DNA of 64,000 nt, taken from positions 2,852,001 to 2,916,000 of the forward strand of contig NW_027362876.1 in NCBI RefSeq assembly GCF_046119375.1, given 5' to 3'. Shown in pieces: positions 6,701 through 53,689 of the stretch. This stretch comes from Phyllobates terribilis. Its lineage: Eukaryota. The position numbers and the translations under genes are program-made. The notes below the pieces were generated by a model. That model was given only the letters and a program-made list of their open reading frames with translations. It was not told the DNA's origin and did no database searches. Numbering within the stretch: the stretch's first letter is position 1; each line of letters starts with the position of its first letter.

Positions 6701-8015
6701 AGAAGCAGACGTCGCAGGAGCTGATCCCAGAGAAAATGGGACACACCAATTGCAGAAGTTCTAATATGACAAAATGGTAGAAATCCCCATAGAGTAGTGA
6801 CGATTTTGACTTCACAGCCACTTTCCGGAAATTAGCACGCCGCGGATGTTGGAGAGTGAAAATAGCAAATCTGCCATTTTATTGCCCAACACATAGTGCC
6901 GAGATTGTGCTCCAGGAGACACACACACCGTAAATTAAGTCTATTAGACTGTGAACTGTCATTGTCTTGGTGAATAATACAATATTTTTACATAACTTGC
7001 CATTTCTACGGACAATTTAAGTAGAAATATTCAAAAATATAAAATTCAAGGATATTTTATTAAAAAATAACAATTTGTTTTATTCTTAGCAGATGACTGT
7101 ACCAAGAGATCAGAGGAACAGCTGACATCGTCTTCAATTTTTAAATGGTATGAGCTTGATATTACACAGGATACAACTGAAGTGAATGCCATTACTCCAG
7201 ATATACCATCATCCCTTCACAGCAAAGATCTGTCATCTGATCCTATGAAACAGGTTATATCTTCTGATTCATTACCGACTACTAAGGAAATTCAAAGTCA
7301 CAAAATAAGCATTAAAAAACGAACTGCTCCCAAAGCAAAGAAGCCATTTTCACATTCAGAATATGGAAATGGTTATCCCCTCTTTCCCCTTTATTTTCTT
7401 AAACATCAAAAAAATCACACAGTGAAGAATAGATTTTCTTGTTCCTGGTGTGGGAGATGTTTTAACCAGAAATCAGATCTTGTTAGGCACCAGAGAACTC
7501 ACTCAGGGGAGAAGCCATTTTCATGTTCAGAATGTGGGAAATATTTTATCCAGAAATTGAATCTTGTTATACACCAGAGAACTCACACAGGGGAGAAGCC
7601 TTTTTCATGTTCAGAATGTGGGAAATGTTTTAACCATAAATCAGTTTTGGTGAATCACCAGAGAACCCACACAGGGGAGAAGCCTTTTTACTGTTTAGAA
7701 TGTGGGAAATGTTTTAACCAAAAATCAGCTTTGGTTAAGCACAAGAGAACCCACACGGCGGAGAAGCCTTTTTCCTGTTCAGAATGTGGGAACTGTTTTA
7801 ACCAGAAATCAGATTTGGTTAGTCACCAGAGAACCCACACAGGGGAGAAGCCTTTTTCATGTTCAGAATGTGGGAAATGTTTTGTATTCAAATTTTACCT
7901 TGTTAGTCACCAGAGAACTCACACAGGAGAGAAGCCTTTTTCATGTTCGGAATGTGGGAAATGTTTTGTATGCAAATCCCACCTTGCTAGTCACCAGAGA
8001 ACTCACACAGGGTAG
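3756..8015 (+). CDS. FAX/KRAB-like C2H2 zinc-finger gene 1 (XlCOF/XlCGF-type), 498 aa, 7 fingers, ending at a premature TAG
   Basis: Exons 3756-3833, 3963-4142, 4227-4350, 4434-4531, 4730-4820, 7090-8015. All introns are GT-AG, phases are consistent, total 1497 nt. Motifs: [15 protein letters not shown] and [15 protein letters not shown] boxes, KRAB-A-like [18 protein letters not shown], and [15 protein letters not shown] fingers. Confidence 0.88.
4227..4350 (+). CDS. ZNF gene 1 exon 3 (KRAB-A-like box)
   Basis: tgtcag|GTTCCT...CACCAG|gtaata; [31 protein letters not shown]. Confidence 0.88.
6200..6750 (-). mobile_element. LTR-like fragment in intron 5 of ZNF gene 1, also present in gene 2 at about 49135-49740
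   Basis: Homologous inverted copy (ORFs 6352..6558 and 49339..49545 are similar); the LTR origin is judged from sequence character only. Confidence 0.4.
7090..8015 (+). CDS. ZNF gene 1 last exon (7 C2H2 fingers)
   Basis: Acceptor ttcttag|CAGATGAC; open to HTG-TAG at 8013-8015. Confidence 0.9.
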
Positions 8016-8537
8016 AAGCCATTTTCATGTTCAGAGTGTGGGAAAAGTTGTAACCAGAAGTCAGATTTCATTAAGCACCAGAGAACCCACACAGGGGAAA
8101 AGCCTTTTTCTTGCTCAGAATGTGGAAAATGTTTTGTATGCAATTCACACCTTGTTAGTCACCAGAGAACTCACACAGGGGAGAAGCATTTTTCATGTTC
8201 AGAGTGTGGGAAACGTTTTAACCACAAGTCAGATTTCATTAAGCACCAGAGAACCCACACAGGGGAAAAGCCTTTTTCTTGCTCAGAATGTGGAAAATGT
8301 TTTAACCAGAAGGTGCATCTTGATAGCCACCAGAGAACTCACACAGGGAAGAAGTATTTTCCATGTTCAGAATGTGGGAAATGTTTTATCCAGAAATGGA
8401 ATCTTGTTATATACCAGAGAATCCACACAGGAGAGAAGCCTTTTTCATGTTTAGAATGTGGAAAATGTTTTAACCAGAAATCGCATTTTGTTAGACACCA
8501 GAGGACCCACACAGGGAAAAAGCCTTTTTCCTGTTCA
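8016..8537 (+). pseudogene. Six further in-frame C2H2 fingers stranded behind the premature stop of ZNF gene 1
   Basis: Same frame as 7182..8015, no stops until the CR1 junction; one finger has His replaced by Tyr. Confidence 0.9.
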
Positions 8538-26885: not shown

Positions 26886-28146
26886 TGTCATAAAAATATT
26901 AAGAAAATATTAATAATTTCGCACTCCCAGACCCCTCTTCATCCTCCCCTCCCCTATAGTATTTGTCAAAGGAGAAGAGATGACACTTTGGCCAGTAGCT
27001 TCTATGCAAATTAGCACACACATGAGAAGTGGCTAAGAGGCAGATGACAGTAAAAAGAGAGGTGGCAAACCCAATTAACATGAGAGTGTGTTTTCCAGTG
27101 ATACAGACCTGAGATAAATTCACACCTGGAAGAGGAAGACACAGCTTGTTAAGTTCAAACACTACTCACAATAACCAGGACAATTCCCAGCTGCAATCTC
27201 CAGGATTTTCAGCACCGACATGAAATATGGAATATCTGCAGTTCCATATGTCCGATAATAATGGGGCCCATAGTTTTAGTGGCAGGGTCGGCCAAGGACC
27301 AATACACATCTTTTCCATAGCTGTATGCCCCTCCGGGGAGCTGTAGTGCAAAAGTACCAGAATAAAGGACTGCAGCTACACCATGTGTGGTCTCTACAGA
27401 AAAGTAAATTCATAATGGAAAATATGGCGTCGCTTACAAGCTTCTGTGATCAACCAACGATAAGCTAGCCCAGAAGATAGAGATGATAATAAAAAAAATG
27501 AAGGCTGGAGCCCAGCCCACGTGAGGTCATCACAGGGGGTGAGTGGGCATGACTCCCCCTTCCGCATAAAATACGCAGCCGAAGGGGGGGTCAGTGTTCA
27601 TTGCCAGGGGTATAGATTCTATAACGGTCACATCAAGTGGAGCATCCCCCCTCCAGCTATACTGAATCGTCTCTGTGATCTGTCTAGTACGCAAGTCTTC
27701 TTTAATCCTGTTTATTCATTGTAACTGTATATTCTGTACTGTAAATGTCCATTTGTAAAATCTTTGTATAGTTTTCATAAACACTGCCTCCCTTTTGGAT
27801 TAAAAATATAAAATTTAATAGTTCCGTTTCTTTTGCCCTGTAATCAATCGTTCCCTCCCCCGAAGCCATGCGCTACCAGAATGCAGGCGCCCGACCCGGC
27901 CTGTATTATATTTCAAATTGGGTCGGCGTGGCAGCGAATAATAATAATTGGGCTATCGTGAAGCTGTCAGTAACCGTACGGGGGTGTATACACATATTCC
28001 ATGCGTTGGAATCCAGAGGTGTGTACGCCATACGCTTTCTGCTCGATTGCCGATAGCTACATAGTGAGTAATCGGGATCGTGTGTGAGCGAATCTCTGCT
28101 CAATCCTGACAAAGTGACAGTGATCTCCCTGGTGTCGTCACTGACA
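26886..28146. mobile_element. Solo LTR (1261 bp) inside the Tc1 transposase
   Basis: TGTCA...TGACA termini, 5-bp TSD ATGAC; removing it restores GGT CAT AAT GAC CAT CAT TAT (GHNDHHY). Confidence 0.88.
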
Positions 28147-28541
28147 ATGACCATCATTATGCTTGGAAGAAAAAGGAAGAAGCTTGAAAGCCTAAGAACA
28201 CCATCCCAACTGTGAAACACGGGGTGGGAGCATCATGTTGTGGTGTTGTTTTGCTGCAGGAGGGACTGGTGCACTTCACAAAATAGATGGCATCATGAGA
28301 AAATAGGAATTATTCCTACCGTTAATTACGTTTCCAGGAGTCCATCATAACGGCACGACAGGAGTTAAGTCCTCTGTTCCTCTAGGGACAGGAAACACAT
28401 GAGAGGTTAAAAGCCCCACTCCCCATCACACCCTCAGTGTTAGTACTAATCACCAAACCAGGATGGATGCAACTCTATTTTATTATATACATATACCAAT
28501 GTTACATTCACATTAGTGTCAAGAGCGGGGCGGGAAATATG

Positions 28542-28631
28542 GTGCCGTTATGATGGACTCCTGGAAACGTAATTAACGGTAGGAATAATTCCTATTTTAC
28601 CAGTACGTCCATCATAACGGCACGACAGGAG
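28542..28631 (-). repeat. DIRS internal complementary region (ICR)
   Basis: Reverse complement of the left end (...GGAATAATTCCTA) joined at 28594/28595 to the reverse complement of the right end (TTTTACCAGTACG...). Confidence 0.92.
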
Positions 28632-28656
28632 ACATACCAAATCAAAGAAATGGAAC

Positions 28657-29182
28657 TGTCAGGGTAAAAAAGAATATATATTTCTCTACTTTTATACGCT
28701 TTGCTTATGTACTAACCACCATTTTGTGTCTTATAACAATAAGCTTTCCTTGCTACGTGTTACATAGATTGAAATTTATGCTAAGATGGTGCCAGTATCA
28801 GCCAAGCACCTGTTTCAGAGAAACGAAACCAAAACATCAACTGACTGTTGTCTGCCCAGAGACTGAGTTAAGGAGACGTGGACCAATCAGGAGTGGCCGG
28901 ATACTAGACATTTATGGCTTACCCCGCCCCGAACAATCCATTTATGGCTTACCCCGCCCCGAACAACCCCTTTCCCCTCCCCATTATGTAGTGTATTTAA
29001 GTTTGTGCATGCGGAAATAAAGAGGAACATTGCTGAGATCGTGGCTTGCCAGTAGCCTTCTGAGCATGCTCTGAGTTTGAACCAGCTTGTTGTCTGACTC
29101 ATTCTTTGAATGGTTGACCCATGCTCATAGCCTTAATTTGGAGTGACTGGAGGACGAGTGGAATGTCGCTACGACCCCGAAA
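28657..29182 (+). repeat. ERV 5' LTR
   Basis: Starts TGTCAGGG; CCAAT box, duplicated 30-bp GC-box repeat (CATTTATGGCTTACCCCGCCCCGAACAA), TATTTAA, AATAAA; 3 differences from the 3' LTR. Confidence 0.97.
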
Positions 29183-29184
29183 AA

Positions 29185-29202
29185 TGGCGCCCAACGTGGG
29201 GC
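29185..29202 (+). promoter_or_regulatory. Primer-binding site, tRNA-Lys(1,2)
   Basis: TGGCGCCCAACGTGGGGC, 2 nt after the LTR. Confidence 0.92.
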
Positions 29203-30334
29203 GTGGCTAGCGGTACGCCGCCCTCTCGGACCCATATTGCTGACTTCCCTGGTGGTGACTGCGGCGGCTGAATTTGAGGCCTGATCAACCTCCATCGAAC
29301 ACGGTAAGTCGAGATGTATTTTATATGTCTCACTTGCCTGTGTGTCAGCCGCAGCGGTTCCTGTGGGATTGTCAGTTTGGATCTGGGTGGGTGACCGGTC
29401 GAGTGGTGAGACCTCAGGCGTCCCGCGCCACGTCCCGTACCAGCAACTGTGAGACCGAGTGACGTCGCATGCCTGCGCGTGCTCGTGTGAACACCACCTC
29501 CTCCTCCCCCGGTCACTGTACTTTTCTTAGATAGCTGCCTCCCGTGACTGATAGTCGATTCCAAGCCATCCCTAGATTGTAGTGTAAGGAAGAAAGAATC
29601 TGTGACGAATTGAGGAGTGCTCTTCGTCTACCACAGAGACTGCTGTAAAGTCAAGGTTAGGAAAGGAGATAGATTGAGGTGTCTCTCTATTTCACCAGTG
29701 TATTGAGGAGTGCTCTACACTGACGGGTGGTGACCTGTAATCAGGGTGCCGTGGTGAGTCGCACTGTAAAGTCGCCATTCAAGGTTAGGGAAGGGGATAG
29801 ATTGAGGTGTCTCTCTATCTCACCAGTGTATTGAGGAGTGCTCTACACTGACCGGTGGCGACCTGTGGACTGCATCAGTGATCTGAGTCGCGACAGATCA
29901 TTGCATTCTATAAGAAAATGTTGCGTATGTTCAAATCTGAAAGACCTGGCAAGTTGCCGGATGGTGCTGTGGGAGTTATCCAGCTACTAGAGTCACGGGA
30001 AAGCAAGGAGGCTGTTAAGAATGTTAGGAATCTGTATTAAATGATAAGACTACCCAGTACGGGCAGACTTCAGCCTTCAGTGTAGAAGGAATGCGTTATA
30101 CAAAATAAGGGAAGTTGAGTGATGAAGGACACCTGCACCAGGCTCAGACACATCTTAGAGTAGATGGTGCAGGGGGGAACAGAGAATGCCGAGCCTTTGT
30201 TCGGATACATGAAAGCTGCAGAATGTGATTTGTTATGTGACCCTAAATTGGCCGTAACCCCGTTGATGCCTGTCACTACACCGAGCCCTCAGCCACCACC
30301 CTATAATGGCGCCGACGCTAAATCATCGGAAGGA

Positions 30335-30394
30335 TGGACGTGTCGTATGTGCGAAGAGCAGAACCCGCCCTGGGCGAAGTTCTGCTGTGTCTGT
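30335..30394 (+). other. RanBP2-type (NZF) zinc finger within Gag
   Basis: WTCRMCEEQNPPWAKFCCVC matches W-x-C-x2-C-x3-N-x6-C-x2-C exactly. Confidence 0.85.
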
Positions 30395-30980
30395 CGGGCG
30401 GGCCGCCCATGGCACGATGCCCAGCCTGCCTCCAAGAACAATCCCACTCCCACTCCTACTCCTCCCTCCAACGGCCATCTTACTACACCTTTTACTTGTT
30501 GTGGGAGGCCCGGAAAGCCCCAATCCGGCCTATATCCACTATTAGATCCGTCCGGTGCTTATTACCAGCCGCCAGCACGGGTGGAAAAGCCCGCAGTCCC
30601 AGAGCACCCATCTGAAACTAATGTGATACCCTCTGCTCCAGTCCACGATGCTGAGGCGCTCCCTCTGTTCCCCATGGGGGTCGCCCATAACCCTGGGGAT
30701 ATCCTCCTCAACTCCCCAGAATTTCAGGCCAGACTGCTCTCCCTCCGCCAACATACTGTTACTCAAGACGATACGGAGCCAGATGAGGGATGGGCTCAAG
30801 ATACTCCAGCGCCCCCCCCCTTTACCCCATACGTCTCCTATGGCATCTTCCACCCCACATCCATTACCCATACTCCGGCTCTTGCTCCAAGCAACTGCTG
30901 AAAGAGCACCACCCCCCAGCCCCTCAGAAGTCTGGGACCCCTGCCGCTCCCGGAACCTAGTAGACCCATCAGGACGCCCT

Positions 30981-31164
30981 GTCACTCTGTCAATAGGCTA
31001 TGGTGACATCCTTACACATCGGGTGGGGGCCATAGTCAACCCTGCAAACACCCGTATGAGCCATGCTGGAGGATTGGCTCGTAAAATTGCCCTTGCTGCT
31101 GGTTCCACTCTGGCTGCAGAATGCCAGGCTCACTTAGCCGAAAACGGAGAGCTTTCAAAAGGCC
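30981..31164 (+). other. N-terminal half of a macrodomain (ADP-ribose-binding fold) within Gag
   Basis: VTLSIGYGDILTHRVGAIVNPANTRMSHAGGLARKIALAAGSTLAAECQAHLAENGELSKG fits the GDI..AIVNxAN..GGxA..I..AAG..L..EC....G.L..G pattern. Confidence 0.88.
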
Positions 31165-31875
31165 ATGGATTCCACAAAAGCAGGATTCCTTAGTACGTAT
31201 AAATCCGGCCTAGAATACATGAAACAGTTAAAAGCCTGGGCTCAGAATCGCTTGTCAGATCAAGCTGGGTCTGTACAAGATGTTCAACAAGACCCTGATG
31301 AATCTGTGGAAAGATATGCTGCAAGACTCAGCATGCATTTTGAGGATCTCGGATACAGTCCTCACGTCAAGACGCAGGCCGCCCTGTTGGTTCAGGCCCT
31401 AGTAGATGGCCTACAAGACGCTCTCAGAGATGACGTTCTGAGGGTACTCCCCGAGATTCGTTCTTCTTCTTTTAACGACGCGGTGGACATTGTCAAAGCT
31501 TTCCAAAAAGCCATGCTAAAAATGGAAAAGGATACTAAGCCAAAGAAGAAAGCCGCTCCTGCCATGGTATATCAAGCTCAAGAAAGCTACCCACCCCCCG
31601 GCAACCAACATGGAATCAAGTGGGTAATGGTTAAAGGCACAGGTGATGATACTCCTCCCACATATAGAAAACAAGACAGAAGAAATGACAAGGGGCCACC
31701 TAGAGACAAGAGACAATCTCGTGATTCTGAAGGACGCATACTGTGTTGGGAATGTGGTAGCCCTAATCACCTTCTCAGAGACTGTCCAACCCTGCCACTT
31801 TCCTTCCACCTTCTAGGGGGGAAGACGAACAGGGTGAAGGTCCATTGGTGGAACCTCATGATTGTATAAAAATTT

Positions 31876-32360
31876 TTGCAGGAAGAGACTTCTGCTCCAG
31901 AGAATATGGTGGCACATCCGCTCGCACACCCTGCCTTTCACCTATGGACTGATAGATCCCGTTTCGCAGACCCTCAAGGGAAGTTCCACACGGGATATGC
32001 TGTCACAACAGACCTAACAGTCCTCAAGGCTGAAGCTCTACCACCATACATGTCTGCACAAGAAGCTGAACTTGTAGCTCTCACAGAAGCCTGCCACCTG
32101 GAACAACGGCAAACATATATACCGATTCTAGGTATGGACATGGAATTTGCAATGATTTTGGACTCTTGTGGAAGTCTAGAGGATTCATCACAGCTGCAGG
32201 TACACCAGTGAAACATGCCTCATGGATTAAGGCCCTAATGTAGGCCCTGGAACTACCCATTCAGGTTGCTGTTATCAAGGTCAAGGCTCATGGAAGACTA
32301 GATTCCAGGGAAGCCAGGGGCAACCACCTAGCTGACCAAGCAGCCAAGACTGCAGCAGTG
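31876..32360 (+). pseudogene. pol: ERV RNase H remnant (PR and RT deleted)
   Basis: LWTDRS..GYAV..SAQEAELVALTEA; VAVIKVKAH..GNHLADQAAK, frameshifted. Confidence 0.85.
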
Positions 32361-32656
32361 GAGAATGTGTCATCAAAGTGGCAGGAAAAGTAAGAAGAGA
32401 TGGGGGAGACCCTCCAAACCGTAGCTGTGGCGCTCACTAGAGCAAGGGCCAAAGAACAGCCGGCGGAAGACCATACAAGTCCAGCGGAGACACGAGTGGA
32501 ATCCAGGGGGGTCAGGATGCCTGAAGAAAAATTGTGTGAAGAGCAAAGGAAGACCCCCACTGAAGAAGTCAAGCAATGGAAAGCGGCGGGAGCCGTGCTG
32601 GCAGGTCGTAAAGATTTAAAGGTCGACTCAGCTCTTTACCAAGTGGACGGAAAACC

Positions 32657-33349
32657 TTGCTCGCCTACCCGCTTGTCAACATGACTGCTAAAGTCACAGC
32701 CAAGAAACTGATCGCTGAAGTTGCCTGCAGATTTGGAGTTCCCCAAGTCATAGAATCGGATCAAGGACCAGCTTTCACAGCAAATATCTACAAAGAACTT
32801 TGGAACATGTTGGGAACAGATTTGAGCCTCCACACTCCATACCATCCTGCCAGTTCAGGCAAAGTGGAAAGGATGAATTCCACACTCAAGACCCAGCTCT
32901 TGAAAATGACCCAAGATCATCCCCTCCCCTGGCCCGACCTACTCCCTATAGTATTGTATCATATCAGACACACCCCACAAGCTAAACATGGGCTAACTCC
33001 CTATGAAATTTTATTCGGGACCCCACCTAAAATAGGAAAAATTAGGCCCCAAGAGTTGTCTGAAACACATGATAGAGTAGTAAAATTTGTGATTGCTCTG
33101 TCTAAAGAATTGACTAACACCCGCTCTACAGTATCTGCTTCTCTCCCAGAATCCACAGGTGATGCGGTACATGATTTCACCCCAGGCGACCTGGTGTACG
33201 TAAAGAAGTTTGTCCAGAAAGACTGTCTCCAACCCAGATTTGAGGGCCCCTACACTGTGATCCTGACTACTCCTACAGCTCTGAAGCTTGAGGGCAAGAG
33301 CACCTGGATTCACGCCTCCCACTGCAAGACAGACAAAACGAGCCTATAA
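32657..33349 (+). pseudogene. pol: ERV integrase, N-terminally deleted
   Basis: RFGVPQVIESDQGPAF, HTPYHPASSGKVERMN, PRFEGPY, WIHASHCK. Confidence 0.92.
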
Positions 33350-33352
33350 AAG

Positions 33353-33750
33353 ATGACTACCTTCTTCTATATCCTTTCCATATGCTTACTGTCTGTCCCA
33401 GGGTGGACAGCTACCACATTTTGGGTAGATACGCAAAAATCCAGACGTATCGATTTGATTACTGTGACATAGGGAATTGCGCAGGAATGACATGGTATGC
33501 TGCATAGTCCCCTTATACAGGAAAGCTATAAACAATGCTGTTCCAACCCCCCATGACAGAGTCCAATTGAGAGATCTAGTTTAGGGTCAGTTGGGAGAAC
33601 TCCATGTGTCACTTAGGGTAGGGCTCAATTGTTTGGGGGCGTCCCATAAGGGGGCAGCTTCTAAGATAATTGGGTGAAGAAATCCACCTCCCCTCTCCCC
33701 ACACATGGACAGTCTCAAAGGCCCCGAAGCAAGGGAAAGCTTAGTGTTTA
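33353..33750 (+). pseudogene. env: env remnant (signal peptide and start of SU)
   Basis: MTTFFYILSICLLSVPGWTATTFW directly after IN; Cys-containing YRFDYCDIGNC after a frameshift. Confidence 0.55.
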
Positions 33751-33758
33751 GGGGGGAA

Positions 33759-34284
33759 TGTCAGGGTAAAAAAGAATATATATTTCTCTACTTTTATACG
33801 CTTTGCTTATGTACTAACCACCATTTTGTGTCTTATAACAATAAGCTTTCCTTGCTACGTGTTACTTAGATTGAAATTTATGCTAAGATGGTGCCAGTAT
33901 CAGCCAAGCACCTGTTTCAGAGAAACGAAACCAAAACATCAACTGACTGTTGTCTGCCCAGAGACTGAGTTAAGGAGACGTGGACCAATCAGGAGTGGCC
34001 GGATACTAGACATTTATGGCTTACCCCGCCCCGAACAATCCATTTATGGCTTACCCCGCCCCGAACAACCCCTTTCCCCTCCCCATTATGTAGTGTATTT
34101 AAGTTTGTGCATGCGGAAATAAAGAGGAACATTGCTGAGATCGTGGCTTGCTAGTAGCCTTCTGAGCATGCTCTGAGTTTGAACCAGCTTGTTGTCTGAC
34201 TCATTCTTTGAATGGTTGACCCATGCTCATAGCCTTAATTTGGAGTGACTGGAGGACGAGTGGAATGTCGCTACGACCCCGACA
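33759..34284 (+). repeat. ERV 3' LTR, preceded by the PPT (AGGGGGGAA, 33750-33758)
   Basis: TG...CCCCGACA followed by TSD GAAC. Confidence 0.97.
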
Positions 34285-34290
34285 GAACAT

Positions 34291-37284
34291 TTAGGGCGGG
34301 ACCACTGCCTGAAGGACTTTAAGGCCATAGGCTAAATGTTGACCGGACAACACATCCAATTTATAATGTTTACTAAATGTGGATATATTGGCCCAGGTTG
34401 CTGCCTGGCAAATTTGGCCCACTGACGCTCCAGCTCTCTCTGCCCAAGAAGCGGAGATTGCCCGAGTAGAATGAGCTTTAAGCGAAATTGGTGGATCCTT
34501 CCCCTCAGATTCATATGTGAGGGCGATAGTCTTTGTCAACCACCTTGCTAGAGTCGGCTTAGAAGCTTTCTTGCCCTTATTCACACCCGAAAATTGCAAA
34601 AAAAGGTTTGAGTCTCTCCTCCAGGGGGCTGTGACTTCTATATAACGAACAATTGCCCTCCTGACGTCCAAGGTATGGAAGGATTTTTCCTTTTCATTTT
34701 TGGGGGACTGGCAGAAAGACGGCAGTATTATCTCCTGATTCAGGTTTGAGCTGGACACCACCTTAGGGAGAAAGGAGGGGTCCAGTTTAAGAACCAATCT
34801 GTCTTCCAGAATCTTAAGGTATGGGTCCAGAACTGAGAGAGCCTGGATCTTGCCTACCCATTTCACTGTAGTAACTGCAACAAGAAAGGCTGATTTCATA
34901 AAAAGCAGGTCTATTGATGTTTCTTCTAGTGGTTCAAAGGGAGACTTACATAAAGCCCTCAACACAAGGTTCAGATCCCACGGCGGTACTAGACTCCTTA
35001 TCGTGGGTTTTAAACGAGCGGTTGCTTTTATGAACCTTGATATCCATGGGTGGTCTATTAAGGAGTAGTCCAAAAAAGCACTCAGGGCCGAGATATGAAC
35101 TTTTAACGTATTTGGCCTCAGACCCTTATCAAATCCCTCTTGGTGGAAATCCAATATCGCTGGGATATTCGGGTGAGTCGAATTTCCCACAGACTGACCT
35201 GCAAAGTTACAGAACTATTTCCAAATCCTAGCATAGATGGCTGACGTTACTGGTTTCCTACAGGCCTGTAGAGTCGTAATTACCCGATGGGAAAGGCCCT
35301 TAGAGGCTAGGATCCGCCTCTCAGGTTCCATGCTGTCAATTGGAGGAATTGGATGTTCGGATGTAACAAGGGACCCTGCTATAGAAGATCTCTCCTGGCT
35401 GGGAGTCTGAATGGGAGATCCACCGCCATCCGGTATAGCAGAGGGAACCAGCTCTTTTTGGGCCAGTAGGGCGCTATCAGAATAAGAGCTCCCCTCTCCT
35501 GTTGGATTTTCCTTAGTACTCTTGAGATGAGAGGGACTGGAGGAAAGGCGTACACCAGTTTTGTCCCCCACGACTGAGAAAGGGCATCTATTCCTTCTGG
35601 ACTGTCGGCTGGGTCCAAGGAAAAAAAGCGCTGCAGCTTTCTGTTTTTCCTTGTTGCGAACAGGTCTATAAACGGGGTGCCCCATCGTTGAATGATTTGA
35701 TGAAACACCTCCGGATTCAGCTCCCAATCTGAGGGACCAACTCTTGCCCTGCTGAGAAAGTCTGCTACCACATTTTCGGACCCCCTTAGATGAATAGCCG
35801 ATATTGAAAGGACATTTCTCTCCGCCCAGTAGAAAATTCTTGCCGCCAAGGATTGTAACCATTTTCCTTTTGGACCTCCTTGTCGACGAAGAAAAGCGAT
35901 GGTGGTGCTGTTGTCTGAGAAAATTCTTAGATGATTTCCTCTGAGCAAATGCTGACATCTTTGAAGAGTCTCCCAGACCGCCTTTAGCTCTCTGAAATTT
36001 GACGACCTGTGTTGCATCTCTTTGGGCCACGTCCCTTGTAGATATCTGTTTCCTATGCTTGCTCCCCAGCCACTTTGGCTGGCATCCATATGGATCTGGA
36101 TTGAAGGAAGAAGGATCCAGTCTACCGCGTTTTCCAAGTTTGAAAGGTCTGTCCACCAGGAAAGGGAGTTTTTTAGCTCTCTTGACAGCCTCATTTTCTT
36201 GTCTAACCCCGATGGTCGTCTGTTCCAAACTGACAGGATCGACTTCTGTAATGGCCTTGAACGGGCCTGTGCCCATTTCACGCTTGGAATGCATGAGGTC
36301 ATCAGTTCTCAGACCCGCATGGCGTATCTGATTGAGGTGGTCTTCCGTTTCTTGAAGCTGTAAATTTCCAGTTTTATTTTTTGTCTTTTCTCCTGGTGCA
36401 AGGAGGACTTCTGAAGACTGGAGTCTAAGAGTACCCCTAGAAATACTTTTGTAGTACTTGGATGGAGGTTTGATTTTTCCCAATTGATTTTCCATCCCAA
36501 GTATTCCAGGGTTTCGATCGTATGCTCTTGTTGAATAAGAAGAGGAGACTCTGACTCTGCCACCAACAATATATCGTCCAGGTAAGGGATGATTATAATC
36601 CCCTGTGTTCTTAAGAAGGCCGCTACTTCTATCATAACCTTTGTGAATATTCGAGGGGCCGAGGATAGACCGAAGGGTAGGCAAGTGAATTGAAAGTGGT
36701 GTACTGTGCCCTCCTGTTCTAGAGCGAACCTTAGGTATTGCTGGTGACTTGGGTGAATTGGAACATGGTAATATGCATCCTTGAGGTCTAGGGTGCACAT
36801 TACCGATCCCTTCTCTATCAATGGAATGCTGGTTTTTATAGTTTCCATTTTGAATCTTTTGTATTCCACCCACTGGTTTAAGGGCTTGAGGTTTATAACC
36901 GTACGGCGTTTGCACGAGGGTTTTAACACCGAGAAGAGGGAGGAGTAATGGCCTAAACCTTGCTCTGAAGGGGGAACCTGTCTCACCACGTGTAGGGATT
37001 GAAGGACTAATATATCCTGCCATAGACTCTTGAGATCTACGGGGGAGCGAGGACGAGTGATTTGGAAACGACGAGGGGGAGTATGGGAGAAGTCTATTTT
37101 GAAACCTTCCCCTAAGGAATGTAGGATCCATTGATTTTTTGTAACGGATGCCCACTTGTCCTGAAAGAAAAGAAGCCTGCCCCCTACTCCTGATCTGCTC
37201 TGTCCTTTCCTCCTTTCCTGTAAGACCATCTCCCCATCTTACCCTTACCCTTGTAATCACGTTTAGGGGATCGACGGGGTCCAC
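34291..37284 (-). pseudogene. DIRS tyrosine recombinase ORF with long N-terminal part overlapping pol; one in-frame stop at 35215-35217
   Basis: ORFs 35215..37284 and 34291..35190 are in the same frame; KAHSTRA, ATW..TFSKHY catalytic motifs. Confidence 0.9.
35307..37229 (-). pseudogene. pol: DIRS pol (RT, RNase H, methyltransferase-like) with two in-frame stops
   Basis: LDLKDAYYH, LPFGLSSAPRIF, YLDD, DASQSGWG, NFRELKA, SDN, HLRGSENVVADFLSR, DLFAT, YAFPP. Confidence 0.92.
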
Positions 37285-38611
37285 GAAAGGGCCGGTATCT
37301 TTTAACCCTATCTTCGGGAAATCCTTTTTTCTTGTCGGATGCTCTTTCTAGGATCTCGTCCAACGCTGGACCAAAGACCCGAGCACCCGAAAAGGGAATT
37401 GAGCACAATTTATTCTTTGAGTGGCTATCCCCCGACCACGTCTTTAGCCATCATGCCCGTCTAGCTGTATTAGATAATACGCTACATCTAGCTGCGAATC
37501 TGACCGATTCGGCCGAGGCATCAGCCATGAATTGCGTTGCCAGCTTTAACATGGGAAGAGAGTCTGATGGCATCTCTACAGGGGAGTCTGACCTAATTTG
37601 ATCTGACAGCTCGTCCAACCAAAGGCACATGGATCTTGCTACTGAAGTGGCTGCGATATTTGATTTAATTATGGCTGCTGAAGCTTCCCAGCTCCTCTTG
37701 AGCATACTCTCAGCCTTCCTATCCATTGAGTCCTTGAGGCAAGACGAGTCTTCAAAGGGGATGGATGTTTTTTTAGCCACTTTCGCTATTGGAACATCTA
37801 CTTTAGGGATCTCCTCCCAGAGTTTGATATCCTCCGGATTGAAAGGAAGACGGGATTTAAAGTCTCTTGGCACAATGAGTCTTTTCTCCACTTCTTCCCA
37901 TTCCTCCATAATCATTGATTTTAAATGCTCATTTACAGGGAACACTCTATTTCTCCGAGTTCTCAGACCTGCGAACATTTCATCTTGTCTGGAATGGGAG
38001 ACCCGAGTGTCCTCCAAGTTCATAGTATGCCTGACGGACTTTAACAGTTCGTCCGTATGTTCTGTAGAGAAGATATATTTCTTTCTCTCTTGTGAGGGTA
38101 ACTGAGAGAAGCGATCCTCATCCTCTTCTAAACTGTGCTCTGATGCTGAGTCTGAATATTCTCCTTCTTCAGACACCTCTTCCATCTCCCACCTAGGTCT
38201 TTTCTGATGAGGAGAAGGCTGTACTATCTGGGGTGACGGTTGTGTATGGGAAGACATGAGGGTCGAGACTGTACTCTGGACCTCCTCACGTATCATAGAT
38301 TTTATATCCGTCAAAAAAGAAGTTTTTTCTTCCTTTAGGACCTCGGCTATACATTATTTACACAGCCGCTTTTTATACGAGTCCTGAAGCTTTGTGTTGC
38401 AGTCTACACATCGTCTTGACTTTTTGGAAGAAGATCCAGACCTCTGGGTTCCCCTCTCCTAATCCATAAAAACATATAAAAGGACACCGGAGATTTACTA
38501 TAAAACCCTGTCCTAGAATACTCTGATCTATCCAGAGAAGGGTTTTAAGCCTGTACTCACACTGCCCAGGGACTCTGAGGGGGCTTCTGACCGTGAAGGA
38601 TTAGCTTCCAT
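37184..38611 (-). pseudogene. gag: DIRS gag-like ORF1 with a predicted 102-nt intron (38459-38560) and two in-frame stops
   Basis: Exon 1 MEANPSRSEAPSESLGS|GTGAGT; polypyrimidine tract then TTAG|GAG; CVDC..LCK*C; RRALW-type motif; phase 0 on both sides. Confidence 0.7.
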
Positions 38612-45473: not shown

Positions 45474-47103
45474 AAATAGAATAAAATAGTAGGTTGATAC
45501 AGGGATTTATTCTGACTGCTGGTTTCAGAGTCGGGAGGGAATTTTTCCTCAGGTGAAGATTGGCTAAATCATTTGGGGTTTTTGCCCTCCTCTGGATCAA
45601 CTTTAGCAATTACAGAACTAACAGGTCGAACTTGATGGACGCAAGTCTTTATTCGGCTTTACTAACTATGTAACTGAATGACCTCGCACACAAGAAATCA
45701 ATATACCCTACACTTGCTCTACTCTACAAGGTCCGGGATAGGGGTAAAGATATAATGGAAATAGGAGACTGCAATGAATATACACCTATATGGTTTAATA
45801 ATGAATATGCAGAGGTCTATAAATTAGAGGGATTCCGGAGTTGGGTGGATAAAGGAATATATACGATATAAAACATATATACGATATAAAACATATTGTC
45901 TGAAGGGATACTTAAGTCCTTTAATGAATTAATGGGGGGATTTGGGTTGACAAATAAACAATTCTAGAAATATCTACAGTTTCGGCATTCATTTAATGCA
46001 CAATCAAGATGGACGCCCTTTTGGGTAGAAAATAATACTTTTGTTAAGTTGGTATTAGAGAAGGGAAATACTAAGGGTCGTATTTCTGATATTTACTGAG
46101 TCCTTCTTGATAATTATTTAAAAATATTTCCTTCTCCAGCTAGACAAAAATGGATGGAGATATAGGTCCAATTTCTGAGGATCAATGGAGAGCGGTATTA
46201 GAACTGGTACCCCAATTATCTGTAAATGAGGCTGAGATTTTCCCAGATCATATTAATACATAGGAAATATAAGACGCCTAGATTCCTATGTAACATAGGA
46301 TACCGGACTGCCGCTGAATGTCCAAGATGTAACATGGATGCTGCGGGCCTATTACATACGCTATGGGAATGCCGGGAGTTAGGTAAATACTGGAAAGGAG
46401 TTCTGTCTATTATAAAGAGGGTATATAAAATAGATATTCAACCAGACCCCAAAAAATGCCTATTAGGTATATTAGAGGATGATATGGAATTTGACCCAAT
46501 TTCAATAGGGATTTCACATATTTTATTTCAAGCTAGGAAACATATTGCATCCAAATGGATTAACCCCTCACCTCCAGAAATGAGTGAACTCAAAAATAGG
46601 ATAAATAATATTATCAGATTAGAAAAAGGGGTATGTAAAAAACAAAACTCAATGAATAAATTAGAGAAAATATAGGGCTTATGGTTGGATACACCAGGAA
46701 TGCCATCAAGGGGGTTATTGCTGGAGAGACAATTTAACTGATGGGATGGGGGGGGGGGGGACTGGCGAGGTCTAATGTTTCATTGTAATGTGTATTGGAA
46801 TTCCCTAACATGTGGTATGGGTAATATAGCACACCTATATGTGTATAGGATTATAATGTTTATTACAATATTATAGTTATATAAGAGATTTCAAGAATGT
46901 GGAATGTTAATTGTAAGATATAGTAACTGCAAGTTATCAGACAGTAATGGGCAAGCTGAAAGGATATATAGGAGAGATGCATGTATGTCATCCCTATGAT
47001 ATGTTATTTTATTTCACTATTGTATGTACTGATTTCTTGTTTTATCCAAAAAAAAAAATAGTGAAAAAAATCTCAAAAGTGTATTGGATTAAAAAAAAAA
47101 AGA

Positions 47104-48107
47104 TCACGAAAAAAGGTTCTCCACTGTGTGGGTTCTCTTGTGACTATCAAGAATCATTTTACGATTAAAACATTTCCCACATTCTGAACATGAAAAAGGC
47201 TTCTCCCCTGTGTGAGTTCTCTGGTGTTTAACCAAAGCTGATTTAAGGTTAAAACATTTCCCACATTCTGGACATGAAAAAGGCTTCTCCCCTGTGTGGG
47301 TTCTCTGGTGCCTAATCAAAACTGATTTTTGGTTAAAACATTTCCCACATTCTGAACAAGAAAAAGGCTTCTCCCCTGTGTGGGTTCTCTTGTGGCAATC
47401 AAGAACCATTTTACGATTAAAACATTTCCCACATTCTGAACATGAAAAAGGCTTCTCTCCTGTGTGAGTTCTTTGGTGAGTAACAAGATCTGATTTCTGG
47501 TTAAAACATTTCCCACATTCTGAACAGGAAAAGGGCTTCTCTCCTGTGTGAGTTATCTGGTGTCTATCAAGATGCACTTTCTGGTTAAAACATTTCCCAC
47601 ATTCTGAACATGAAAAAGGCTTCTCCCCTGTGTGAGTTCTCTGGTGACGAACAAGAGCTGATTTCTGGTTACAACATTTCCCACATTCTGAACATGAAAA
47701 TGAATTCTCCACTGCGTAGATTCTCTGGTGATTAACAAAAACTGATTTCTGGTTAAAACATTTTCCACATTTGGAATAAAAAAATCTATTCTCCATTGTG
47801 TGTATTTTTTGATGTTTAAGAATATGCTTTTTGAGGGTAAAACTGTTTCCATTTTCTGAATGTGAAAATGATTTCTTTGCATTAGGAGCAGTTTGTATTG
47901 TAATGCTTATTTTATTTTGATTTTCCTTAGTAGTCGGTAATGAATCAGCAGACAGGACATGTTTCATAGAATTAGATGATAGATCTTTGCTGTGAAGGGA
48001 TGATGGTATATCTGGAGTAATGGCATTCACTTCAATTGTATCCTGTGGGATCTCAACATCATCCAATTTAAAAATCTCCTGTCCCTCTGATCTTCTGGTA
48101 CAGTCAT
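47104..48107 (-). CDS. ZNF gene 2 last exon (finger array)
   Basis: ORF 47104..48114 with [15 protein letters not shown] repeats. Confidence 0.9.
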
Positions 48108-51100
48108 CTGCCAAGAAAAAAAAAAATTATTAATTTTTAATAAAATATCCTTGAAATTTATATTTTTTAACATTTCTACTTAAAATGTCTAAACAAACAG
48201 ATCCCTGGGCTACATGCTAGTCCAGGAAAATGAAAAAATATATGCTCAAGCTTAAAAATCTATTTTATTAGACACAAATCTAAAAAATAGAGGATTTTAA
48301 ATATTCCTCTATTTTTTAGATTTGTGTCTAATAAAATTGATTTTTAAACTTGAGCATATATCCCTTCATTTCCCTGGATTAGCATTTAGCCCAAGGATGT
48401 GTTTGTTTAGATTGATTTAGAAGTGGTATGCAATCTTTATTTATTTTTCAGTGGGATTCTTGTGTTAATTGTACTTAAAATGTCTGTAGAAATGGCAAGT
48501 TATTGACCGAATGACAGTTCACAGTCTAATAGAAAACCTCATAGGATGAACCAGTGGATCGTGGTGTCCAACTGTTTGTTCATTCTACCTTCTAAATATG
48601 GAATAAGAAGCCACCAAACAATGTTATGTAGGCAAAAATAATATCAATAAAAACTTCTACTCATCTCACAAAAAACAAGTCCCCACTCAAGTCAAACAGA
48701 GGATTCCACATTATTAGATTCTCAAAGGCTCTTTAGAATCAACATGGCTTCCATAAACCAATCCAGCAAAATCCACTCTTTCTAAGTCAAATCCCCCCTC
48801 GCTTCTGAGCCTTGCAGTGTGCCCAAACAACATTTAGCATCCATGTATTTGGCATTACTATAGTGAGAATAACTCACTTAATTTACGGTGTGTGTGTCCT
48901 GGAGCTCAATCTGGGCACTATGTGCTTGGTAAAAAAAAATGGCCAATGTGCAATTATTACTCTCCAACATCCACTGCGTGCTAATTTTCAGAAAGTGCCT
49001 ATGTAGTCAAAATAATCAAAACTTTTATAGATTAATTCACTGAGGGTTATAATTTCCAAAATGAATTCACTTTATGGGGATTTTTACTTTCCGGGTTTTC
49101 TGACATTTTGTCATATTAGGGCTTCTGCAAATGGTGGGTCCCATCTCCTCTGGGATCTGCTCCTGCGACGTCTGCTTCTGTCACCAGTAGAGAAATTTTT
49201 ACCGCACACTCATTCTGCAGACGGCGCTGGTGATGGAGGAGACGTCAGAACCAGAAGCTCTGGGCGGCGCAGACTCTGTCCAGCCACTAAGATTAGGGTT
49301 GCTGGGACCTGTAGTACTATCCAGTCTGGCAGTATGGTGTGTGCTGTCCAGCTGGAGTAATCTGCTCCCTGCTTCAGCCATTTGGAAAGCACCGCACCCT
49401 ACTAAAGCTGGAAGCATATTGCCGGAAGCTGCCAGATACAGCCTTGTCCTCCTCTGGTTCAGTCCTCTGTGCTCCGCTCCCGGCTTGTGTATTTGTTTCC
49501 TGTTGTGACCTCGGCCCGTTTACTGACTACTCTTGTGTCTTCTGATTTTGTATTTTCTCTGCCCTCCTGGTTCTGACCCAACTACCTGAATATTCTTCTT
49601 CCCACCTCACTCCACAGAACAGCAGGTAACACCGTGGCCCAAGCCTAAGGATTTCTGTGTAAGAACAGATCCATGTAGAGGGGTTAAATAAGTGATGAGC
49701 AAGACGATCCCTGGGATCTAGAAAATGAAGTAGATAGCGCCAAGCCTGTTTGTGGTAGTCATCTTTTGAGCTGCCATGTGACCATGAACAGTGCCCCCAA
49801 TACATTGTGTCTGCAAACTATTCCAGCAAAATCTGCATTCAAATAGCTAAATGGCGCTTCTTCTCTTCTTAACCTGCCATGTGCCCAGACAGTAGTGTAC
49901 AACCATATATAGGGGATTGTCAGATTCAAGAGAAGTTAGAAAATAATTTGTAAGGTCCATTTGTTTCCTATTATCCTTTGTGAAGAATCTCAAAGTTATC
50001 ACCACATAAAGTGACACGTTAGATTAGAAAAATGGGACCTGATTAAAACGCAAAACTGGCTGCGGGAAGGGGTTAAATCAGAGTATTTTGGGCACCAACT
50101 ACTATAGTCAAAAACTGTAAGTATAGACAATAACATCTACTGAAATTATCAAACTCAACAGTCTCCATTAGTAAATAGTGAGTAACTAGTGGTGAAACCT
50201 CTCTGGGGTAATTAGAGTCTGGGGCTCGGTGGCTCTTGGGAATCTAAACTATCGTAAGGGACAATATTTTCTATCAGATGAGTTTCAAGAAGAAATATTA
50301 GACGTTCAAAGAGAACTTTTTATAATAGTGCAGAGATGAGGTGTCTAAAATTTAGATCTCGGACATTTGGAAAAAGCTATGGAGATCTTTTTTCAAAGAC
50401 TAGCAGGGTGTAATGAGTCTCACATAAGTGAGGCCGGCCGATCCCACCACAACCTGTAAAAAAAAAGAATTTTTTTTATTCTATGTTAGATCCCCAACAA
50501 CAATGTATATTTGGGGAGAGACCTCCAACAATAAACTGGAGTTTAGAGAAAGTATTAGTGCCCCCATTTCAGGAGAGATTGTGCAGTAATCTGAATTCCT
50601 TAGGATTGAAAACATAATGGAATTTATGACGTGGAGTGAATCCAACATACCAGGGCTCGAGCCATGCCAACACATCTCCTGCAGACGTGAATAAATGTAT
50701 ATTACAGCCATCAGCCACGCACAGCTTAGAGATATATCATGGCACAGGTGTAATGTTTTCTGTATAGTTTATCACAATCCTGTTTGAAGTTAGATTTAAA
50801 ATAAATTTTAAAGTTTAGATAAAAGGAAACTCTGTTGTTATTGCATCATTACCCTTCGCTTTCTCTTACAGGCCCATCATAATATTTTTCTTTAAGTGAT
50901 TTTCTCACTAGTCAGCACATTCTACGTACGCTGCCATTTGGCTTTGTGGTTTACAGATCTGGGCAGGTAAAGGTCAGCGTCTTCTAATCCCAGGGGGCAG
51001 GTGGATCCTCCAGGTTGTAAGTTCTACAGAAAAGGGCTTTCACAATTCACAAAGTCATTTGAACATTTTCAGATGGAGGAGAATGTTATGCTCTAGCAGC

Positions 51101-52275
51101 AAAATGCTGATCACACGATTGTGATACGGCCGGACTACACTACCAATAAAGCAGCCACAGCCGGTGACTGAGAAGACTATATGACCTCTCTGCATTTAGT
51201 GTTTACTACTCACCTGGGTAGTCATATGTAGGAATCTCCTCTTTACACCGCTCATCACCCCTCACATATGTCTCTGTAGTATTAATATGGGTCAGATCTT
51301 CACCCTGAAACAAATATTATAAAAGTCACAGACAGATGGAGAAGTCACATCTATGATCAGCTCTAATCCTGCCATCTCCACCGTTCTCATTACACAAGTA
51401 GAAAACATATAAAACTGGTGGATAAAACAAGACTGAACACAAGACCTTCACAGTCGTCTACACACCATAGGGGAGATCTCATGACACCTTCTCTCCATCT
51501 ACCTGATGATCCTGAGGAACATTGGGATCTTCTTGTTTACAGTCCTGTGGAAGAAGAGGACGGGGACATCTCTCTGGTGTTGTCCTCTTACTGGATAGAT
51601 CTGGAAGAAACACATACAGGGTCTGAATTCATTCTTTACATACAGATAATTTTAGGCCGTGTGTATTCAGTCCTGTCTATTACCTGGTGATGTGAGGGGC
51701 TGGGGAACCTCTGTCATGACGTCCTTGTACAGATCTTTGTGTCCTTTTAAATACTCCCACTCCTCCATGGAGAAATAGACAGCGACATCCTGACACCTTA
51801 TAGGAACCTGACACATACAATGATATCATCATTCCCCAATCCCTTAATAGCGTACTGTATAATGTCCAAGCATTCCCAGCAGTGTCACCTCTCCAGTCAG
51901 CAGCTCAATCATCTTGTAGGTGAGTTCTAGGATCTTCTGGTCATTGATGTCCTCATGTATGAAGGGATGAGGTGGAGGCCCCGTGATTGGGCTCAGGGGT
52001 CTTCTCCATTCCTCAGACATAGGGTCCTGACAGCGCTCACTAGAGGTCTTCTTCACTACTGTGTAATCCTGATAATGGAGAAACGCCTTAATAAATCTCA
52101 GTACAGACATTTCCAGAGTCCTCACCTCTCCAGTTCTGCCCATCTGTTATTCCCATAGATAAGAATGATGTAATGTGATGTCATCAGAATCTCTCACCTC
52201 TCCAGTAAGCCGGAAGAGGATCTCTAGGGTGAGGTGTAATATCCTCTCCGCCATCTTGTGTCTGTCCATATCCAT
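47104..52275 (-). CDS. FAX/KRAB-like C2H2 zinc-finger gene 2, predicted 524 aa, 7 intact fingers plus 1 degenerate finger
   Basis: Exons 52275-52198, 52068-51889, 51807-51684, 51600-51503, 51304-51214, 48107-47104. Exons 1-5 have the same lengths as in gene 1; total 1575 nt, no internal stop if the CAG at 48110-48108 is the acceptor. Confidence 0.85.
51684..51807 (-). CDS. ZNF gene 2 exon 3 (KRAB-A-like box)
   Basis: [31 protein letters not shown] with GT-AG flanks. Confidence 0.88.
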
Positions 52276-53689
52276 CCTTGATGGGTAAAATCAGGAAAAT
52301 GCTCTTCTATAAAAGAACTGAGAGGATCCAAAATTGTAGAGACCTGAATGAGAAGATGATGAGCCGATGTAACATCATAAATATTCTGTGTAATAATACA
52401 ATTACTGGAGACAATAAGGGAAATATATGAGGAGATTTTTTATTTTACAGTATCTAGTTTTCTTCTTTACATCTAGTAATAAAACCTATATATTTTAGGC
52501 CACAGACAACAAGCAGTTTCTTCCTTGGAGTCTGTAGCTGAACACGTTTCTCAAAGACTCATCTTCCTTATTGCTAATTCTCATCTCATTTACCGACACT
52601 AGAATCGGCATTAGCAATACTGCAGGAGATATTCATTACACGTGACATGAGAAATAAATACTTCATGATGAAGACGACATCTTCATCTGCTACTACGGCT
52701 CTGTAAATATATTTGGCCAGAGTCCATCACTGACTACATCTCCACCGGCCGTCTATATGAATGTTTCCCGTCTTTCCTGGTCTGTAATCTTCTATCTCGT
52801 TAGATCTTATGTCTCATTCACACATAGAAGTTTGAGGCATTTAGAAAACCTTTTTTATTTTCACAAACACCTCGGACAGAAATTATTTGATACCAAAGTC
52901 TCCATGTACAGTGTTTTATGGAGTTTATTTCTGGCCTTAGACTTTCCTATATTACAAGAAAAACACCAGAAAAAAAACAGATATTAAAATGTTTCAAAAG
53001 AAAATTGGTACCAACAATTCTTGTAAAAAGAAAAAAACATGCAAAAATAAATTTTCTTATTTTTTAATACGTTAAACATTTAAGAAAAACAAAAAACCTC
53101 TTTTGGGCACCAGAACATAGATGTTCACCGCAGGGATGGCACAAGTGCGGCGGAAACACAAACCCTGGCAGTTTAACCACTTGCTGCTGACAAAAACAAA
53201 CATGGCATCTAAGAAGGTTTGGTAGAGTTTTGCTGAAAGCCCCTTCTCCCCCAAGGTCTTGATAATATGGGGCAGTCTAGTTACAACGATACCATGGTAG
53301 TTTAACCACTTGCTACTGTCAAAAGCAAACATGGCATCTAATAAGGTTTGACAGAGTTGGGCTAAATGCCCCTCCTTCCCCAAGTACTCGATTGTTTGGG
53401 GCTACTTAGTTACTATAATACTTAAATGCCTAATAATGGTGTCTGGGCCTGCAATGTACAAAAGTCTATTAGGTCGGGCCTTTTACAAGGTCAAACCTGG
53501 CCTAAACAAGTTAGATAACAGAGTGTCTGACAAAATGTTCTCTTGAGAAAAAGTTAGTGTGAGATACATTCTTTCTTTCTCTTCCCATAGAACTTATGTT
53601 ATGCAAGGAGTGATAATAACATGATTTTAAAGCAAGCCGACAAAATGGAGTTGCTCTAGCATGAGTATCAATATGTCCTTTACACTTTT

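Follow-up and report, generated by a model that had tools for sequence, protein, structure and literature searches.

The provirus in the window and its truncated Gag

The window, a 64-kb stretch of Phyllobates terribilis DNA, contains at 28657-34284 a deleted and defective 5.6-kb endogenous retrovirus (ERV) that is related to the Rhinella marina ERV (RMERV), and the open reading frame at 30164-30901 (plus strand, 245 aa) belongs to this provirus (Table 1). The frame encodes a part of Gag only, with the MA region broken upstream. Relative to a longer natural copy of the same family, Gag residues ~428-655 are deleted, and a full Gag is probably not made by the window copy. No protease (PR) or reverse transcriptase (RT) is seen in the ORFs between the LTRs. 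The RMERV-clade features, namely the LTR pair, the primer-binding site, the target-site duplication and Gag homology to RMERV, are all present, and RMERV and the window family are grouped at 100/99 in a tree of the capsid (CA). On these features we assign the element, itself defective, to an anuran ERV family of the epsilon-like RMERV clade; this copy has lost the RT, and the epsilon-like class of RMERV is taken from PMC12690878.

Table 1. Features of the provirus, in window positions.
Feature	Position	Strand	Remark
Target-site duplication, 4 bp	28653-28656 and 34285-34288		flanks both LTRs
5' LTR, 526 nt	28657-29182	+	differs from the 3' LTR in 3 of 526 columns
Primer-binding site	29185-29202	+	presumably of the tRNA-Lys type
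MA coding region	29918-30163	+	broken by stop codons and a change of frame in the window copy
PPPY late domain	30293-30304	+	PPPY in 5/5 aligned long Gags
RanBP2-type C4 zinc finger	30335-30412	+	signature at 30335-30394; lacks the ubiquitin, Ran and GGU-RNA signatures
LYPLL, probable aromatic/Pro protease site at the end of the p12-like peptide	30530-30544	+	an ALIX motif also fits
PSAP, possible lineage-specific TSG101 motif	30629-30640	+	position not conserved
Macro domain, N-terminal remnant inside Gag	about 31035-31163 (30990 at widest)	+	PF01661 E 7e-6; truncated by the internal deletion
Capsid, C-terminal part	31157-31530	+	end approximate
CCHC nucleocapsid knuckle, single	31741-31788	+	Pfam 21.2 bits; later frame than the finger ORF
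pol remnants: RNase H piece, integrase core, C-terminal piece	31870-33349	+	
3' LTR	33759-34284	+	pairs with the 5' LTR

The preliminary description of this DNA had placed PPPY, a finger of the pattern W-x-C-x2-C-x3-N-x6-C-x2-C, LYPLL and PSAP in one frame and a CCHC knuckle apart from them. All four motifs are confirmed in ORF 30164-30901, and the knuckle is found downstream. Shuffling the residues of the ORF 20,000 times never produced the finger signature, and the window contains it once in all six frames. Individual late motifs turn up often in the shuffles because the stretch is so proline-rich (PPxY in 3908, P[ST]AP in 1699 and LYPx(1-3)L in 312, each of 20,000), and all three occur together in 8 of the 20,000.

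The window family is large, with 1,110 and 4,543 first-look candidates, of which 40 and 150 were scored. The nearest matches within the genome are segmental duplicates, the window's flanks being carried by 4 of the 4 checked, and nine near-identical copies are therefore not counted as independent. The duplicated segment comprises the provirus and its flanks (window 27100-35800, ~99.5%) and is found on several unplaced contigs; the duplicates L088-L091 hold ~310 nt more near window position 32665. Among 47 family loci, which were picked by similarity and are 97-100% alike, every signature residue is retained by 45 or more. For these reasons, and with a stop shared by 17 of the 47, the within-genome copies were rejected as evidence of selection. 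The shared stop lies in frame inside the finger, which suggests that the loci bearing it form a subfamily that does not code for the protein and continued to spread, either in trans or through duplication. Among 1,895 candidates, no homologue of the 245-aa ORF was recovered from longer proteins, and a longer natural copy was needed as the query.

Additional observations concern the surrounding sequence. The leader of the ERV contains a 128-nt tandem duplication at 29651-29866 (94% alike over 88 nt), also found in another copy (L055). Directly after the 3' LTR begins an RT-encoding element on the minus strand (34291-38353; RVT_1 E 8e-21), also with RNase H-like and tyrosine-recombinase-like frames, which we take to be DIRS-like. 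A large inverted repeat pair, ~40 kb apart at 3742-8537 and 47102-52289, consists of arrays with an 84-nt period like that of zinc-finger genes.

Class, fold and position of the finger

PF00641 is the only Pfam family matched by ORF 30164-30901, but the score of 13.8 bits (E 0.036) lies under the gathering cut-off of 27 bits. Other copies of the family score 15.3-16.9 bits, and 5 of 11 frog ERV lineages with the same finger exceed the cut-off at 28.0-34.9 bits. The signature of RanBP2-type fingers as quoted in PMC12383448, W-x-C-x(2,4)-C-x3-N-x6-C-x2-C, is matched exactly in the window and in 11/11 lineages. A comparison of the window finger with the PDB returns Nup153, RanBP2, TRABID, MDM2/4 or RNF31 fingers in 20 of 22 rows, with TRABID, Nup153 and MDM2 in the lead (best row, TRABID NZF, E 0.011). 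In the ESM Atlas, the best match, to PF00641 clusters, is 0.84, below the lead level of 0.9.

The AlphaFold2 model of the first 184 residues of the family reveals two confident parts, residues 10-122 and residues 143-177, the second of which matches RanBP2-type fingers, with a pLDDT of about 83 over the finger. In Foldseek, the finger model superimposes with an rmsd of 0.4 Å on 3gj3_B and 0.5 Å on 5af6_I over 26 residues (probability 0.99); the E-values are weak (0.25-1, with no row reaching 0.001), as is expected at 30 residues. In the model, the finger is composed of two orthogonal hairpins that form a C4 site. The exact signature and the overlay of the predicted fold on the Nup153 and TRABID fingers uphold the RanBP2-type identity first proposed. 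The accompanying idea of a captured module is plausible, but its host donor is not traceable by profile scoring: host fingers scored with a profile of the viral fingers give flat values of 8-23 bits that single out no donor, and a claim of one was dropped. The PDB points to no donor either: two lineages match RBM10 best (E 1e-5 and 2e-4), whereas TRABID leads for the window finger.

The order of domains in these Gags is MA, PPxY, finger, a hydrophobic/Pro site, CA and one CCHC, and the long Gags add a linker, a macro domain and a further linker between the hydrophobic/Pro site and CA. In three longer natural copies, Pfam places the finger, the macro domain and the CCHC within a single frame, with the protease next in the copy tested. 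For the MA part (residues 10-122 of the model, from another natural copy), the MoMLV and RSV matrix proteins are the top two of 48,161 chains, at a modest Z of 5.0 each. On the opposite side, in a model of the finger and CA of a compact relative, strands begin directly after the proline of LF/P. MLV CA (6hwx) is aligned to this model with a Z of 12.1 and an rmsd of 4.6 Å over 204 residues, such that residue 1 of mature MLV CA corresponds to model residue 31, the F of LF/P, and the CAs of HIV-1, RSV, BLV and CAEV likewise start at model residue 31-32. This alignment of the CA start is made on the compact relative; in the window family, CA helix 1 lies ~380 aa beyond the slot. A single-sequence PDB search with the compact CA piece returned only noise. 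In light of the MA fold before it and the CA start after it, the finger occupies the p12-equivalent position, which bears out the placement given in the preliminary description. The spacer is p12-like in that it combines this location between MA and CA with a late domain.

PPPY is a ligand of Nedd4-family E3 enzymes. PPxY is located 9-16 aa upstream of the finger in 8/11 lineages and is not found within 25 aa of it in the other 3/11. Relative to the finger, P[ST]AP stands at +98 in the window, at +48 in one Ascaphus Gag, at +55 in another and at -12 in one family, and the motif is absent nearby in the remaining lineages. In another ERV family of this genome (L102, L103, L104 and L119; about 1465-1500), PTAP overlaps PPxY directly before the finger. 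There is precedent for all three late motifs in one Gag in MLV (PMC4848597) and for late-motif turnover in p12 in ERV-Fc (PMC4798954).

The slot occupied by LYPLL reads LFP, LCP, VCP, IYP or LAP in relatives and continues as PLVT, PVLT, PVVT, PLVS and similar in all 11 lineages. It is homologous across lineages, since PLVT follows Y, C or F in long and compact Gags alike. Its P1 residue is Y in 3/11, F in 4/11, C in 3/11 and A in 1/11 (non-aromatic in 4/11). A complete LYPx(1-3)L is present only in the window lineage, with YPxL in one more. In compact Gags, the slot aligns to capsid residue 1, the N-terminal proline, and PMC3114732 describes CA as always opened by a type 1 aromatic/Pro site. 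Given the varied P1 residue and the aromatic/Pro sites that open CA, the conserved property of the slot is best read as a protease site, and LYPLL probably serves cleavage in the first place; from its motif, ALIX binding may be a second use in the window lineage. Of the three late domains originally listed, PPxY is thus retained, whereas PSAP holds no conserved position and LYPLL probably belongs first to a cleavage slot. From the slot to CA helix 1 there are 307-385 aa in long Gags (macro domain included) versus 22-36 aa in compact Gags, which suggests that the macro domain was inserted right behind the ancestral capsid start.

Conservation among frog lineages and the ligand face

The same finger is found in 11 frog ERV Gag lineages, in all of which W, the four C, Q15, N16 and P17 are invariant; the Cys/Trp/Asn pattern is therefore kept among related ERVs, as the preliminary description requires, and G13 is present in 9/11. 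The closest named protein to the family is the RMERV Gag, followed by a Ranitomeya protein. A search of 1.84 billion representatives yields further Gags from Ascaphus, Rhinoderma and Ranitomeya, and a profile search yields one from Phyllobates. The finger is present in 5 of the 24 matches inspected as possible Gags; the other 19 are macro-domain proteins, fragments or fusions in which the region is mostly absent. One apparent MA-to-CA protein (P0011) lacks the finger, either through a genuine loss or because its gene model is faulty. In the predicted proteins P0155, an Eleutherodactylus record, and P0055, a RING N-terminus is fused to the capsid-like region and CCHC of the clade, with a weak B-box or TRIM coiled-coil match; these could be co-opted TRIM-Gag fusions or gene-model artefacts.

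In a PF00641 search of the P. terribilis genome, 15 of the 30 top loci prove to be viral and fall into three further ERV families; for 12 of them tBLASTn to Gag confirms the assignment, and the other 3 were placed by likeness of finger and flank. At least five ERV families with the finger exist in this genome. A second family (L063-L087) is 97% identical to the Gag P0177, an "uncharacterized protein" in a Phyllobates record. At locus L121 (contig C4463), a Gly-rich frame that we assume to be plant-like encodes a RanBP2 finger of the RNA-binding type, possibly on a contaminant contig. A tblastn search of a phage collection gave no match, and no finger-bearing Gag from fish, salamander or amniote was retrieved by searches that were word-limited or in which macro domains took up much of the output.

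In a comparison of five long Gags, conservation of the finger equals that of MA, macro domain and CA, with 48-68% identity and 10 of 25 positions invariant. Identity is 20-40% over the 10 aa before the finger and 10-28% over the 174-aa linker after it, in which 5/174 positions are invariant. In the CA tree of 14 rows, the deepest split, at 98/97, parts long macro-bearing from compact Gags, and the finger occurs on both sides. The in-frame macro domain is restricted to one sub-clade comprising the window family, RMERV, Ranitomeya, two Ascaphus Gags and L112; as the tree is rooted at the midpoint only, it does not distinguish gain of the macro domain from loss.

The preliminary description had linked the finger to ESCRT or ubiquitin recruitment, RNA binding or nuclear-pore passage, and the residues that serve these functions in known fingers are not found. 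A T-[FY] pair at positions 13/14 is critical for ubiquitin binding by NZF fingers (PMC12383448, PMC12805371), and the NZF motif adds a hydrophobic residue at position 25 (PMC12805371). The pair occurs in 0/11 viral lineages, and position 25 is a hydrophobic V in 2/11 only. A late-phase co-adaptor, in which PPxY recruits a Nedd4-family ligase and the adjoining finger binds ubiquitin or an ESCRT factor, would suit the short distance between PPxY and finger, the overlap of PTAP with PPxY in one lineage and the top PDB row of the window finger, the TRABID NZF. However, the missing pair argues against it, and the linkage of PPxY to the finger is partly forced by the shortness of the peptide; this explanation seems unlikely.

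Fingers that bind RNA are marked by an Asp ahead of the Trp, an aromatic residue at 17, R20 and either R or W at 19 (PMC6384913, PMC5499739), and the Asp and N24 are named among the RNA contacts in PMC6384913, where W19 with R20 is the EWS/FUS pattern. The base-stacking aromatic residue is present in 0/11 viral lineages (P17 in 11/11), N24 is absent from 11/11, and the Asp before the first Trp is absent from the lineages inspected. W19 occurs in 5/11, R20 in 4/11 and both in 3/11, which resembles the FUS/EWS contacts. Together with the RBM10 matches of two lineages, which share C-G-x-Q-N and C-G-x-P, and with the single CCHC of these Gags, this pattern leaves room for a non-canonical, RBM10/FUS-like RNA binder that would help the CCHC to select or chaperone viral RNA. 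The proline at the stacking position and the missing N24 and Asp speak against such a binder, as does the window family, which has neither R19 nor R20 and whose finger has TRABID, Nup153 and MDM2 as its best rows. It is regarded as possible but doubtful.

In Ran-binding fingers, an L-[VIL] pair at 13/14, with a small residue at 25, is presumably the Ran contact. The pair is present in 7/7 Nup153/RanBP2-like host fingers, named in part by likeness to PDB matches, and in 0/11 viral lineages; A25 is found in 4/11. A mimic of Ran-binding or nuclear-pore fingers that takes the pre-integration complex through the pore would agree with A25 and with the top Foldseek rows, which are Nup153 and RanBP2 fingers in Ran-GDP complexes. 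These rows do not discriminate, however, because the fold is common to all RanBP2 subfamilies, and without the L-[VIL] pair such mimicry is very improbable. T-[FYL] or L-[VIL] is kept at 13/14 in 11 of 13 host fingers of the same genome. As judged from sequence, the residues for ubiquitin, Ran or RNA binding in known fingers are absent from the viral finger.

The core of the viral finger is invariant, and the ligand-face positions 14, 18-22, 24 and 25 vary across lineages. A variable surface of this kind fits the lack of any ligand equally well. The finger would then serve structure alone, by ordering or stabilising the linker between MA and CA or by holding the cleavage site in place for the protease, which accords with invariant residues that nearly all belong to the fold or are shared with host fingers (W, the four C, N, G after C2 and C4, R/K-P). 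Against a pure spacer, the distances vary from about 10 to >400 aa between finger and CA and from 27 to 121 aa between finger and slot; moreover, a metal-binding domain kept in 11/11 lineages as a mere spacer would be unusual given that MLV p12 is unstructured (PMC2277328). We consider a ligand-free spacer improbable.

Proposed role and comparison with known systems

In the reading that we prefer, with a probability of roughly 40%, PPxY and finger make up a p12-equivalent peptide, and the finger, its folded core, binds a lineage-specific and probably viral partner, of which the last step is our inference. One cut by the viral protease would fall just ahead of a conserved proline where MA ends, and another at the LY/P (LF/P) slot; the MA-side cut is predicted from one nearly invariant proline, P127. 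These cuts would release a peptide of ~55-90 aa that is the positional equivalent of MLV p12. PPxY would serve budding via Nedd4-family ligases, and the finger, packaged with every Gag, would remain with the core or the viral nucleoprotein early in infection. There it may act through a non-canonical surface on a partner that changes between virus lineages, with capsid as the first guess. The partner would not be a host protein that stays constant, such as ubiquitin or Ran, since binding to it would be expected to hold the ligand face constant too, as happens in host fingers. MLV p12, which carries PPPY, binds CA and chromatin or nucleosomes (PMC6021111), and by this analogy we tentatively favour a role at the core early in infection.

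A broader evolutionary scenario is possible, although somewhat unlikely. A whole clade of amphibian retroviruses would have swapped a disordered p12 spacer for a RanBP2-type finger that was domesticated, perhaps from an RBM10-like source, and now makes up a fourth functional class; for early tethering, it would bind capsid or chromatin, or else viral RNA in a new mode. The macro domain would have been inserted later in one sub-clade, directly after the ancestral capsid start.

The spacers between MA and CA in Gag are mostly disordered and hard to study, and that of MLV controls budding, core stability and chromatin access. A conserved, folded finger of 30 residues offers a compact, expressible handle on these steps in epsilon-like retroviruses, and may add a new ligand class to a family known for ubiquitin, Ran and GGU RNA. 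Its partner is a testable question, since the ubiquitin, Ran and RNA residues are absent. LYPxL motifs in such Gags call for caution, as they can be protease sites. A Gag with a built-in macro domain would likely be a counter to ADP-ribose-based defence.

A RanBP2-type finger in a frog ERV Gag is already noted once, for AnERV9 of Gastrophryne, in which Gag has two such fingers (1 of 10 families; bioRxiv 10.1101/2024.07.05.601823). AnERV9 resembles the window family in having a Pol of the epsilon class, a single CCHC and fingers of the RanBP2 type in Gag; it differs in having two fingers rather than one, and the text of that report offers no analysis of position, function or ligand. No further report of such a finger in Gag was found in the literature searched, which mostly left aside subscription papers, the RMERV description included, and "RanBP" does not occur in the text of PMC12690878 or bioRxiv 2021.11.23.469661. 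The clade-wide conservation, the p12-equivalent placement, the protease-site reading of LYPLL and the missing ligand signatures appear to be undescribed in print.

The RMERV Gag (AWS20966.1 / A0A2U9K508) is 46% identical to a longer natural copy of the window family, over 98% of that copy, and shares the order MA, PPPY, finger, LYPL, macro domain, CA and CCHC, but its linker lacks the PSAP of the window copy. Macro domains are also known from epsilon-like fish ERVs (Basta et al. 2009, as cited in PMC4977317), where they are additional ORFs, whereas here the domain lies in frame inside Gag. Host fingers (Nup153, RanBP2, TRABID NZF, MDM2, RBM10/RBM5 and FUS) are alike in signature and predicted fold; the viral fingers differ in their invariant Q-N-P and frequent G13, and have none of the three ligand signatures. 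The likeness to MLV p12 is one of position: both lie between MA and CA with PPPY, MLV Gag also has PSAP and LYPAL (PMC4848597), and MLV CA is the closest fold to the CA of the compact relative. In place of an unstructured p12, however, the frog spacer contains a folded C4 finger, which is followed in the long Gags by a macro domain.
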